From the NCBI GenBank assembly GCA_040143965.1, contig JASJQH010006886.1, positions 1 to 57,157 of the forward strand: a DNA stretch of 57,157 nt. Reading direction: 5' to 3'. Positions within the stretch are counted from its first letter, which is position 1. Every line of letters begins with the position of its first letter. Source of the DNA: Basidiobolus ranarum (lineage: Eukaryota). Below are positions 37,601-43,600 of this stretch, in pieces. A program made the position numbers.

Positions 37601-40600
37601 TTCCATTACCGATACACGGATTTTTATGCCATATATGTGATTATTCCAAACGGAATTTTCAACAATCAAAACAATTACATCATCTGGTCATCAACGTAAT
37701 GTTCCTTGAGAAGCAAACTAACCTTTTATAGGGATAGGAAATGCATCCAAAGAATGGTTCAGAAAATAATGGGGCAATGAGGGATACTTATATAGACCAA
37801 GATTTGACGCAAAACCAGCTCGAGTGAGTTTAATCACACCTATGTCCATATATGTAGGTTTGTTATTCAATCGTTAGTGACGTTATCTGGATGGCAGTGA
37901 ACATCATCTATAATTGGTACCGCCGAAGCAAATCTCATTGATCAATATTTACTCGGTTTATTTATTTCTTACGCCAATTGAGAGTATATAGCCAACTGTA
38001 TATCTTGACCATGGTGTTTCGGATACTTTCTCCCCATACTTTGCTTACTCACCTGGTTGGAATCTACCGTGAACCAGGAATGGAAATTTTGCACATTCTG
38101 GGCTCGCAAATAATTTATCCGCGGCTCATTTTTATTTGTTTGATAAATCCATTTGCGCTGCCGGTGATTCCTCATCAGCTTACCTCCAACTGCCTCGACC
38201 AGGCATATGATAGTCTATGCTTGAGTTTGTCAGCCTCTCATTACATATGTAGCAGTCACGACCAAGGTGAGTCAAGTTTTTACCTGATTAACCCCAATAT
38301 TGGAACTAACATTTTGGTACATCTCCATCTGACGTCCTCGTTCTATTATTTTCACCTTTAACTGTCTCTCAGAGAGTGTGGTATATGTTCAATGAGGCTC
38401 AGTATCATTGCCTCAATAACACTTCGTATGCATACTCTCTTGAATCTCGTTATAAGAAAGCAGGAGATGATTGTAAATGCAATCACACAAGTTAAAAAGG
38501 AAACAATGTGAAGGAGTTAGATATTCATCTATTATCCTATCATCTTGTTTAACCAATTATGCAGGCCAAGAATTTGTCTAGCTAGACTATAACCAGATAT
38601 TTCCAAAACCTGTGTGACATACCAATCTTGTCCATGCTCGAGGCCTTCATTTACGCTAACCGTGTATCTGCAGTGGAGATACAATCGAAGCATGCGGCTA
38701 TATATTGTATTTTAAGCTTTTATTCATGATGGTCTAGTAAAAGAAGGTCCCTCCATTTCTGTAACGTATTCTTTTCATGATCTACTTCTATCATTTATGC
38801 CCCTTCGCAAATTGGATATTTAACATTCATGCCATCTTAAGGGACTTTTAAGTGTAACATAATTATTATTTCCCTTACACTATGCACGCCAAGTACCCTT
38901 TATGATCTAAACTAACCTGTTTCTACGATACGTGTGTGTCACAACGTCTGCTCTTGAGTATTTACTCTAGGGGGAAACCTGATTTTAACTAGATTTCAAC
39001 GGCCAAAATGAGCCACCCCCAACTCGAACTTTTACACCCTGAGCTGAAATAATCATCATCAAAAGGTAGTCGGATGAACCGTCCTGCAAGAACCTGTGCC
39101 AAGATACTGTCTTGGGGGGGGTGTAAATCCAAGCAGGAATATGTACTGTAGGATAGCAGCAACCAACCATCAAGGGCTTTGACCTCTTCCCGCCTCCTTC
39201 TCACCTGATATTGTCGATCATTGGATGATCATTCAAACTTACTAATACATGCATGAATGATGGGCTTTAAATGTTTGCACTCAATGAACATACTGAGATA
39301 ACGTCCCGTTCTCATAAAATTAGTGCAGCTATACACCATTAACAAGGGAAGTGTTGTAGTACACTTGTTAATTAGCCATATTACATGGATACACATAACA
39401 AATGATGTTGACTGCTATTTCGTTGATTTTTTTGCATGCCATCCCAAATCAACCCAGGCTTTGTGTTACCTCGATTGGATTTTTACCCCATGGAATTTTA
39501 CTAATACATTCCGAATTACCGACATCAATTTTGTATCAATCTACTATTAAAGGTAGCTCAGAATCACCTAATCTACTAGTCTATTCAAAGAAAGAAAAGA
39601 AAGTTCGAAGTAGGATGATTAAAATCTACCAAAAGTCAACATTTCAATGGTTTTCACAAGTAGTTATGATAGTTCAATATCCTTGACTCTTTATTCATGT
39701 CATGAATAGGCTCACTCGCCCTTTAAACTTGATTGTGTATGATGAAGCTGACAGGTTATGATCGGAGCGGTAGCGAATATTCGTTAGAGATTTGTTGATA
39801 AGTTGTTGGTAGATTCCACTGGGAGATAGGTGAATCGCTTGCGGAAAGCATGTTCTAACAGGAATTGCCAACACTTAAGGCTATTATCAAGATGCAGTTG
39901 AGCTCATTATTTGGGCGTTGATGCCCTCGCCCGCTCTCCGTCCCAAATCACGCGGCTGACATTCCTTTCTTGAATCGCCTTCACATGCCTAATTTGGATC
40001 GGGATTTCTCAGCTAAATCAGTCAGATCAATATCAGGGTGAGGGTAAGGGTAAGGATAAGGATAAGGGCAAGGTGGTGAAAATGATAAGCTGAACGGGGC
40101 TGATGCATTGAAAACTGCAAATAAAGCTGCCAAGGTTCATGACCAAAAGAGGGAGAACAATATTCTATCAACATGATGTTCCCTTTTTAGGGAATACGTT
40201 ATTATATTGTTTTCTCAGTAATTTACACAATTATGTTTAATGAAACCATTCCCTTGCCTAATCCAGCGATGATACCTAATCCATCGTCCATCTGAAAAGT
40301 ATATAGCATGCGTGGATGCCGCTGAATGTGCCTCATCGGAGTTTATTTCTTGACATTCTGCTTCCGTTTCTACTTTCCTTTACATCTCAATCCTTGACTT
40401 ACTCACATACATTGTCAACTATGAGAACCAGAACCTTCAGCGCTTCCATTGAAGACATTATTACAAAGCTTGACGTCTCTAACGTCTGCGACAAGAGCCC
40501 ACTAGATCGCCTGGAAGCACGTATTCAACATCAATTAGCAATGCTCGCATCACAGGAGATGAACATTCCAAAGATTTCTTCCGAAGCCAGACAGGACGTT

Positions 40601-43600
40601 AAATCCTATTAACTGCCTCCTCCCACCGTCACTAGAGTTTGCCGGATTTGTGATAGTTTCACAGTTCAAATTCGTTATAATATCTTGCAATTGCTTTCAC
40701 TCTTTACCATATCAATCTCTTTAGTCTTTGCTTGCATGTAAATAAATTGTACATACTTTATTTAAACATAGAGATATCCATGGTTCCAGTTTTGTGTGAT
40801 GATCGAATATTGTGATAATTTCTTAGATGGCTGACTCAAAGTGAATTACTACGAATGAGTTGAATGGATGACGAATCGGTGGCTATTTCATTAAAATCAT
40901 CGAGATGAGGCATCCAGATAATTAACTATCATTCTGGATATTTAATATATACCTAATTAAGTTTATTATTCACATTGTTACCTCATCCATGTATATGGAC
41001 CCAATGGTTCAGTCTGTTTCGGAGAAGGTCAGATCCGGTGCGGACTTAAGTTGCTCAGATTCTATCCAACGTCATGATTATGCTCTAGACACTCAGCGTG
41101 TTGATACATGAGCACTAGTAGGGAAGTGAAAGGTAATATTGATACTAACATTACCGAACTACTGCATGTGCTCATCGGTGGGAAGAAGAGAGATGACATA
41201 TATGCTCGGAAAGACTTCCAGTTTGGTTGATGTAAAAGATTCAGTCCCAGGTGGATCGAACCCTAAAATCATCACTCATCCCCCGTCGAAAGGTTGATTA
41301 GGTAAAGTAATTTAGCCAAGATATGGGTCACTTTAGAGCCAACTAAATCATATTTCATTTTCACTACCAACAGTCACGATATATCAAATGTGTGTGAGGT
41401 CCCTGATGTTTTCTAAGGACCCGTCCCCATTTTATATGAAACTGATTGGAAGAGTTTGAAATCCTGGATTAGATCAAAATGTATAAAAGTCTGGCTACTT
41501 GTCTACTGTTAGAAAGAACAATTTGAAACCCATCTCTAACCACTTATACCACGCTACACTACACCCAGAAGCATGAGAGATATGAACTCCATTGAAGACA
41601 TCATTTCCCAACTGGATTCTAATACTGTTACTGAAAAGAGTCCTCTTGACGTACTCCAAACACGTATTGAAAATCAAATATCACAAGCACCTTCCAGCGA
41701 CTCGTTGCCTGTGTACCAACAATCGGATAGCATAGACTTTCCACAAAGGTTATTGTCCTTTAGTAATAACTACGATACACCGATAATGGACACTAAGTGG
41801 CTCTAAACCAGTAGATATCGTGGATATTCCTCCAGACCCTCCCAAGCGATGACTTTATTATTGTACATGCCTTCATTCACCCATCTCTTCCCCCTCCAAC
41901 AAAAAGCAGGTTCTTTACTTTTTAAAGTCCATTGATACATTTAATATGTATACGGTAACGATGAAATCCATGTCTTCCAAGAAATATCAATGTAAATAAA
42001 ATATGTAGTATATTATGTATAGACGGGTGTAAAAGTATCAAGATAAACTGCATATTGTACTTGTATCTTTATTTGTGAATACGCATATTAATAAATCCCA
42101 TTCATCATTTTGAGACAACTTCGGGTTTCTAAAGTCTATAGACAAATAGCAGTTCCCAGTGATATTATTCGTTTTAAGCGAACCCGAACCTCGTGAAGAT
42201 CATTTAGTAATGGCTTCCTTAGTATGGAAATCTAATTCCACCATTCCTCATTCAATCATCCCGAATTGAATCAAATCCCATGAAATCAACTTTATCTGTC
42301 ATCTGAATCCGCTATTTCCGCTCCGATACAAGCCTCATCAAATCTCTAAACTCTACCGCTCAATACATGGGAACAAAAAAATCAATACATGGGAACCGTA
42401 GAAGTGGCTTTGGATCACGTGTGGATGAGGTGAGACAATAGTTCAGCCGTTACTAGTTGGGAAATAGTGTTTGGTACACCGCACCACTCAAGATACACTA
42501 ATCCTTTATAGTCAACTATATCTGATCTGCCTCACACGTTCTAGATATACAAATACTCAGCAAGCGTAATAATGGCCTAGGAGGTAAAGATCACCTAGTG
42601 ATATGAAACTATCCGTATAAAGTCTTCCATTCCGTTTCACCCCCTAATTATGTGTTGCTCTTGCCTCGATTTCTGGCATTCAGTGCTCATGATCGATCGG
42701 AATGAACCTGGATCTTTGACTTCTGACAACATGTATAAGAATGCGAAAATGCTTTATTACGTATTCAATTAGTAATCATTGGGTATGGCTGTAACACTCT
42801 GGAATTCAGTGAGTCAAACAAGGCATGCATTAGGGATGATTGAGGAGAGACTGGTGTGCGTTGAAAAACGAACTGACAGATCATCAGAGTAGGGGAACTG
42901 GGTCAAGGTGAGGGTAAAGAGAGTAAAGAATAGGAAAAGGAAATGCTATCGGTACGTCATGGAATCTTGATGCTAAGCGCCAAATATGAATGTTCAATGA
43001 CGGGTGGCTGATCAGAATTCATGTTATCCGGTGTTACCTAAAGTTATCATCCAGACTCATCATTAATTTAGTTCAGATAAAGTTGAGCAGTGTGAACGAA
43101 ATCAAGTGATAGAAGTGTGTTTCTATGCTATACAATATTTGTATTAAATACATTAACCAGATTGAAACTAGCTTTACGAACTAGATTGAATGCGGATATT
43201 TTTGTCAAATGAATGAAAACAAGAATCCCTAAATAGGATATATGATACGGATGTCGAAAGTATTAAAGTACTGTAGTTCAACCTTAATAAGCGTGTTAAT
43301 GTCAGGATACTTGAGTAGATTGAGGATTTAGTTGCCAGGGTCATGAACTTTCCTTTTGTAGAGTGTAGGGGATGAGGACTTTATCGTATTTGTATGGCTA
43401 ATATGTACATCATGAGCACTGCTACCACCACTACCTTGAAATCCGATTTTCCCCGTATTTGGAACCTCATACTTGGCGCAGTAAGTAGCCACAGCGATCT
43501 AAATATGCGATATACTTCGTTTAGTAGGGCATTTGATGCATACAGGATTGCTTATTGCAGCTGTAAGTTGCTGATATATACTTTTGGGCACTTTGTCCGT

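Follow-up and report, generated by a model that had tools for sequence, protein, structure and literature searches.

A pair of small open reading frames (ORFs), designated A and B, lies on the plus strand of Basidiobolus ranarum contig JASJQH010006886.1 (GenBank assembly GCA_040143965.1), within a stretch of 57,157 nucleotides that was analysed as a whole and is referred to below as the window. ORF A comprises 63 codons and ORF B 77 codons, each followed by a TAA stop, and both have the coordinates reported in an earlier inspection of this DNA by a model, hereafter the sequence-only reading. The two predicted proteins share an N-terminal motif of about 30 residues. Sequence comparison indicates, with a probability that we put at roughly 0.7, that A and B are real, constrained paralogous genes restricted to the genus. 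The best-supported account of their origin would be an old tandem duplication within a family of small proteins found so far only in Basidiobolus.

The motif shared by the two proteins

Residues 9–46 of protein A and 6–43 of protein B align in BLASTP without gaps, with 19 of 38 residues identical and 29 of 38 positive (expectation value, E, 7e-12), and the 30-residue core of this alignment contains 18 identities (18/30). The Smith-Waterman score of A against B is 96; shuffled versions of B reach a mean of 24.6 and a maximum of 66, and none of 20000 shuffles attains the observed score. Different codons are used at 9 of the 18 identical core residues, including AGC CCA CTA GAT in one gene against AGT CCT CTT GAC in the other, and the nucleotide differences in the core number 10, 5 and 16 at codon positions 1, 2 and 3, respectively. 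Comparison of the forward frames gives 18/30 conserved residues in the proposed frame, against 9/29 and 8/29 in the other two, which also contain stops. Together, the shuffle, codon and frame results indicate that the similarity is conserved as a peptide, in the proposed frame, far beyond chance.

Outside the motif, no alignment was found between the flanking DNA of A and that of B. The sole DNA repeat common to the two loci is a 29-nucleotide stretch (D4) within the motif, and past the motif the tails of the paralogues are unrelated, with 4 of 24 residues identical. A six-frame hmmsearch of the window, covering 2480 ORFs, returned two matches, A and B themselves, with the next best at E 0.25. 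The sequence-only reading had described an ungapped paralogous motif of about 30 residues, a change of synonymous codons at many conserved positions and flanks that do not align; it was correct on all three points, as well as in the motif sequences that it quoted.

The Nei-Gojobori method applied to the paralogous motif gives a proportion of nonsynonymous differences (pN) of 0.23 and a proportion of synonymous differences (pS) of 0.74, the latter being saturated, so that their ratio has qualitative value only. These comparisons support the conclusion that the peptide sequence of the motif has probably been preserved over a period in which synonymous sites became saturated.

Orthologues and extent of the family

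Both genes have direct orthologues in Basidiobolus meristosporus CBS 931.73. Gene A corresponds to K493DRAFT_310925 (64 residues, ORY05513.1, P0003), with 52 of 64 positions identical (81%), and gene B to K493DRAFT_310924 (77 residues, ORY05512.1, P0001), with 57 of 77 identical (74%) and no gaps. Start, stop and length are conserved between the two species, the A-type proteins having 63 and 64 residues and the B-type proteins 77 in both; protein A begins with MRTRTF, as does its orthologue, and the two also share the same end. Since each protein of the window is nearer to its orthologue (52/63 and 57/77) than to its paralogue (24/59), the duplication appears to be older than the split of the two species. 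Identity between the orthologous tails amounts to 16/25 for A and 30/42 for B, and the B tail has a conserved end, FSNNY(D/E)TPI.D.KW(L/F).

The accessions of the B. meristosporus pair are consecutive, and for each protein the record gives a single contig 231,500 bases long. Accession numbers follow contig order by convention, and on these grounds the pair was taken to be neighbours in that species as well. The upstream neighbour of the pair in the window, a gene for UDP-glucose 6-dehydrogenase (34568–35965, minus strand), encodes a protein 89% identical to a B. ranarum protein on a 10-kb contig and 80–82% identical to proteins of Mucoromycota. Its best match in B. meristosporus (88%) is located on a 58-kb contig and not on the 231.5-kb contig with the microprotein pair, and synteny is therefore not shown via this gene. 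These matches suggest that Basidiobolus has several dehydrogenase paralogues or that synteny is rearranged there.

When 5.8 billion proteins were searched by a word-indexed method with a two-sequence profile (A and B), eight candidates were obtained, three of them at E ≤ 1: the window's own protein A (P0002) and the two B. meristosporus proteins P0003 and P0001. With a four-sequence profile, HMMER was run exhaustively on 1.84 billion cluster representatives and gave four proteins at E ≤ 0.001. Two of these are the family's own representatives, and the other two are the repetitive proteins P0004 and P0005, whose scores are inflated by their repeats, the best single stretches scoring 17.6 bits (E 340 at the size of the library) and 4.3 bits, respectively. 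The sequence-only reading had proposed a profile search of the motif, and its outcome is the addition of the two B. meristosporus orthologues, with no other credible relative, longer or otherwise, among the 1.84 billion representatives. The motif was also considered as an exon or domain of a longer protein; none of the 1969 longer candidates scored reached E ≤ 1, and the orthologues end at the same residues. Scanning of metagenome contigs for the DNA of relatives produced 190 pattern matches, of which none was confirmed, and no published mention of the locus tags, accessions or motif words of this family was found in the literature searched. As judged by sequence, the family would consist of four members from one genus in the protein collections searched.

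Known families gave no better result. No Pfam-A family was matched by protein A, by its 98-residue extended form (see below), by P0001 or by P0003, and the best Pfam match of protein B, HNF-1A_C (PF04813), reached 19.7 bits and so lies below the gathering threshold of 27.3. Of the three matches at E ≤ 10 in a profile search of PDB sequences, none reached E ≤ 0.001; the highest-ranking one, flagellin (6t17_A, E 0.027), is assembled from stretches of at most 10 bits. The best feature scores in the ESM Atlas, 0.85 for B and 0.75 for A (FbpB), are both below the lead level of 0.9, and Foldseek of model A against the PDB gave no match at E ≤ 10. The description of the motif as unrecognised is thus in agreement with Pfam, PDB, Foldseek and the Atlas, none of which gave a match above threshold, and no match to a known family or transposable element was found in Pfam, PDB sequences, Foldseek (model A) or the repeats of the window.

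Predicted structure and possible function

AlphaFold2 models of both proteins were built on a four-row alignment. Model A contains helices at residues 10–20, 27–44 and 54–62, with a mean predicted local distance difference test score (pLDDT) of 70.8 and a predicted template modelling score (pTM) of 0.33; the mean pLDDT of residues 31–40 is 92. Model B contains helices at residues 7–17 and 24–38, with a mean pLDDT of 62.1 and a pTM of 0.28; its residues 46–77 have pLDDT below 50, as do 34 of its 77 residues overall. The sequence-only reading had proposed a helix-KSP-helix protein, and structure prediction gives a helix, a short loop and a second helix that opens with KSP. Of the accompanying proposal that this helix-KSP-helix protein is under purifying selection, constraint at the peptide level and the two predicted helices hold, with the strength of selection readable only qualitatively from the paralogues.

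In both models each helix begins one residue past an invariant serine (S9 of SIED and S26 of SPLD in A, S6 and S23 in B). Invariant hydrophobic residues (I, I/I and L in helix 1; L, L, I and L/I in helix 2) recur with a spacing of 3-4, as in helices packing against another helix, if the models are followed. A Ser-x-x-Asp/Glu sequence that opens a helix is known as the classical N-capping box, in which the first helical position is frequently Pro. The predicted helices of this family conform to it, with an acidic residue three positions after Ser and the helix starting directly after Ser, and the SIED and SPLD serines are read here as putative helix N-caps, not as proof of a kinase site. Since these serines sit at predicted N-caps, the conservation of SIED and KSPLD, which are the most conserved words of the family, is explained without a kinase.

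The mechanism that we tentatively favour, as possible rather than probable, is that of a binding module. A conserved N-terminal module of about 30–40 residues, consisting of two amphipathic helices and a short loop, would be followed by a paralogue-specific, largely disordered tail. The two-helix module would provide a surface for protein binding or self-association along its hydrophobic stripe of 3-4 spacing, and through their divergent tails the paralogues would differ in partner or regulation. The products would act inside the cell as adaptor or regulator microproteins, which would set them apart from enzymes, secreted peptides and transposon remnants. The serine conserved ahead of Pro could perhaps be phosphorylated as well, which this mechanism does not require.

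The sequence-only reading had raised a possible proline-directed kinase site. It is unlikely that KSP is a proline-directed phosphosite of the cyclin-dependent kinase (CDK) or mitogen-activated protein kinase (MAPK) type, and the family a phospho-regulated helix-KSP-helix switch. K-S-P-L-D is invariant in all four members, KSP is exposed at the loop-to-helix junction in both models, and the N-terminus of the A-type proteins has R-x-R-x-x-S, a basophilic-kinase consensus, in both orthologues. However, the fuller CDK/MAPK consensus is S/T-P-x-K/R or P-x-S/T-P, which EKSPLD and DKSPLD do not match, only the minimal S-P being present, and the S-I-E-D box of helix 1, which has no proline, is equally conserved, which points to a structural reason, namely N-capping. 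A combination of both ideas, in which the two microproteins form a genus-specific regulatory module with a two-helix surface switched by phosphorylation of the N-cap Ser of helix 2 (KSP), is very unlikely. Phosphorylation would in that case alter the stability of the helix and hence binding, and the tails would direct the paralogues to different targets; if true, the pair would amount to a signalling adaptor family of recent birth in a fungus of an early-diverging lineage.

The four members have a grand average of hydropathy (GRAVY) of -0.37 to -0.60, a net charge of 0 to -7 and 1, 1, 0 and 0 cysteines. Their N-termini (MRTRTFSAS and MRDMNS) are polar, and their C-termini are KSY, KTY, KWL and KWF. 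A secreted cysteine-rich protein or pheromone precursor was considered and set aside in view of the few cysteines, the polar N-termini and the absence of a CAAX ending, the lack of a signal peptide being judged from the sequence. A candidate nuclear export signal in IEDIITKLDV was likewise dropped, its last hydrophobic position being Ser in three of the four members. Prediction of a complex of A and B scored 0.00; run without alignments or controls, it counts neither for nor against binding.

Gene models, genomic surroundings and comparison with known proteins

The features of the two loci are listed in Table 1. The stop-to-stop frame of gene B opens at 41540, which places an in-frame stop just upstream of the ORF. 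In gene A, an in-frame ATG further upstream (40316–40420) would lengthen the protein to 98 residues with a hydrophobic leader. This ATG was rejected as the start: the B. meristosporus orthologue model begins at MRTRTF, the TATA-like site lies just 16 nt upstream of the ATG at 40316, and the extension has no Pfam match and lowers the codon score from 0.24 to 0.115. The extended form is probably not translated, as far as these comparisons indicate. About 350 nt upstream of gene A there is a hexamer microsatellite, (AGGGTA) x 6.5, at 40035–40073, which accounts for ORFs reading PYPYPY and LTLTLT on the minus strand.

Table 1. Positions of the two genes, their motif copies and nearby candidate signals in the window.
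Feature	Position	Strand	Basis or remark
TATA-like element (TATATAG, 7-nt site; also given as TATATAGC)	40300..40306	+	precedes the gene A start codon by 121 nt; sequence reading; putative function
Gene A, coding sequence of the 63-residue microprotein (A-type), stop codon included	40421..40612	+	ORF and B. meristosporus orthologue
30-residue motif, gene A copy (SIEDII...KSPLD...RIxxQ): predicted helix 1, loop and start of helix 2	40445..40534	+	Alignment, AlphaFold2
AATAAA, possible poly(A) signal	40741..40746	+	129 nt past the gene A stop codon; weak evidence (common hexamer)
TATA box-like element TATAAAAG	41482..41489	+	precedes the gene B start codon by 91 nt; putative function
Gene B, coding sequence of the 77-residue microprotein (B-type), stop codon included	41573..41806	+	ORF and B. 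meristosporus orthologue
30-residue motif, gene B copy	41588..41677	+	Alignment, AlphaFold2
AATAAA, possible poly(A) signal	41995..42000	+	189 nt past the gene B stop codon; weak evidence (common hexamer)

Each gene had been credited with its own TATA box and AATAAA. Both AATAAA hexamers (40741 and 41995) are present, and TATAAAAG at 41482 matches the pattern TATAWAWR; TATATAGC at 40300 does not match it, and the frequencies of these motifs are near chance. TATAWAWR was found 44 times in the window against 37 expected, a count reached by 18 of 100 shuffles. AATAAA occurs in 120 copies, about one per 480 nt, and its presence within 200 nt of each stop therefore proves little.

A codon-usage log-odds score was trained on seven confirmed genes of the window, which themselves range from 0.13 to 0.45 bits per codon. 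It gave 0.24 bits per codon for A, within the range of the training genes, and 0.118 for B, just under its lower end, the coding frame being in each case the best of six. Among the 88 ATG-initiated ORFs of 50–110 residues in the window, A ranks 5th and B 18th, so that codon usage may be said to offer weak support for coding.

Three of the four members are already in public protein collections: protein A is present in exact form in NCBI/UniRef, and both B. meristosporus entries bear the name "hypothetical protein." The exact 77-residue protein B of the window is absent from the public collection, and no alternative model of it appeared among the matches of the searches. The prediction that gene callers would miss such genes is therefore mostly wrong, being true of one copy in four, and annotation of the family is uneven in that this copy is absent from the public protein set.

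It is quite unlikely that A and B are anything other than independent genes, whether ORFs present by chance, decayed remnants, or parts (exons or upstream ORFs) of a larger transcript. The surrounding 8 kb without a recognisable gene, the missing public record of the window's B copy, the promoter and poly(A) motifs at chance level and the modest codon ranks are all in keeping with that explanation, but conservation between paralogues that is specific to one frame cannot be chance. Moreover, start, stop and length of both ORFs are kept in a second species, no longer protein carries the motif, and in B. meristosporus both were annotated independently as complete proteins of 64 and 77 residues.

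Several points weigh against the reading of A and B as constrained, genus-restricted genes with a binding function. The family numbers just four members from two species, and the window's B-type gene is apparently not called in its own annotation. The comparison of pN with pS is drawn from 30 codons, over which pS is saturated. Between the two species the tails have diverged considerably and may be under weak constraint only, and an orthologue identity of 74–81% could be had either under moderate constraint or by rather rapid evolution of closely related species. The best B. meristosporus match of the dehydrogenase may be a paralogue and so gives no calibration of the divergence. On the structural side, the models are shallow and of modest confidence, so that the packing of the helices cannot be reliably told from them, and the reading of the serines as N-caps combines a general concept with predicted helices. 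The function proposed is purely inferential, with no known family, fold or partner to support it.

The window is fungal, and its best protein matches point to a Basidiobolus-like organism. Its long ORFs encode PPR, LRR, kinesin, CCCH zinc-finger, UDP-glucose dehydrogenase, SPRY, ribosomal S13/S15-type and DUF7729 proteins. The pair lies in a gene-poor stretch between position 36130, where the dehydrogenase ends, and about 44350, from which the SPRY gene extends. None of the 19 stop-to-stop ORFs of at least 60 residues between 36.2 and 44.1 kb has a Pfam match at E ≤ 0.01, and neither Rfam matches nor tRNAs were found around the pair; the statement that about 8 kb contain no other recognisable gene holds at the level of Pfam and Rfam. 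No repeat longer than 36 nt is present within 36.1–44.4 kb, and the only tandem array there is a single hexamer microsatellite. A transposable element fragment or dispersed repeat was considered as a source of the motif; no transposon signature was found, with two motif copies in 57 kb, no flanking repeats and no Pfam match in any of the 19 neighbouring ORFs.

The downstream neighbour (44430–45816, minus strand) looks like an intron-containing gene, split over two ORFs, for an SPRY-domain protein with a membrane anchor. A first ORF of 210 residues carries a hydrophobic segment and the start of the SPRY domain (E 0.0026, below the cut-off), and the next ORF carries the remainder (E 4.1e-15). 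Farther downstream, an ORF of 216 residues (54921–55571, minus strand) has a hydrophobic N-terminus resembling a signal peptide and contains two cysteine-rich internal repeats, each with the pattern MPGA..(S/P)EC..(F/Y)H.(R/K)C ... CG.GDR. It has no Pfam match at E ≤ 0.1 and may represent a secreted cysteine-rich protein without a described family.

If the reading of A and B as paralogous genes is right, they provide a clean small example of a lineage-restricted microprotein family, with an old duplication of which both copies were retained in two species. The compact motif under constraint would be useful for understanding how small orphan proteins originate and are maintained in early-diverging fungi. 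The wider importance is modest and bears on no long-standing question.

Among known proteins, the stretches of PF04813 and flagellin 6t17_A that match the family are Ser/Gln-rich or helical, with 50–60 residues aligned, and the similarity is compositional only and does not imply membership. P0004 is an unnamed protein of 364 residues, presumably bacterial, with about seven 25-residue repeats. Its repeat is similar to the fungal motif (IE..L...SPL....RIE.Q...APS), with which it shares a period of 25 residues. Taken singly, however, the repeats fall short of significance, P0004 is a long, repetitive protein whose C-terminal region is unrelated, and it was not treated as a homologue. The comparison with P0004 spans positions 41591–41707 of the window.

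Derivation of the motif from such a protein by horizontal transfer, with the fungal genes as fragments of 1.8 repeat units, is highly improbable. In its favour, the 25-residue repeat (SPL...RIEEQL..APS) aligns ungapped to B residues 7–45 at 33–39% identity in several registers, P0004 is the only match outside the family with a whole-protein E of 1.5e-5, and the spacing from IEDII to IENQI in B is also 25 residues, but the whole-protein score is a sum over the repeats of one weak match, the Pfam matches of P0004 are sub-threshold coiled-coil noise, and an amphipathic helix with a Pro/Ser linker easily arises by convergence. Horizontal gene transfer into Basidiobolus as such is reported in one published source (PMC7466969), which would lend this derivation some plausibility. 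According to the same source, RNA-seq reads of B. meristosporus CBS 931.73 have been aligned to the genome of that strain.

The closest known counterparts of A and B are K493DRAFT_310925 and K493DRAFT_310924, which match them in starts, stops and lengths and are neighbours by accession number; they belong to another species, and both are uncharacterised and free of domains. The nearest class is that of the orphan small-ORF proteins of fungi, which is a category and not a homologous family, and for the two-helix motif with two S-x-x-D boxes no described counterpart was found in Pfam, PDB sequences, the 1.84 billion representatives or the literature searched. The two proteins resemble this class in their shortness, hydrophilicity, partial disorder, restriction to one genus, tandem duplication and lack of a domain match.

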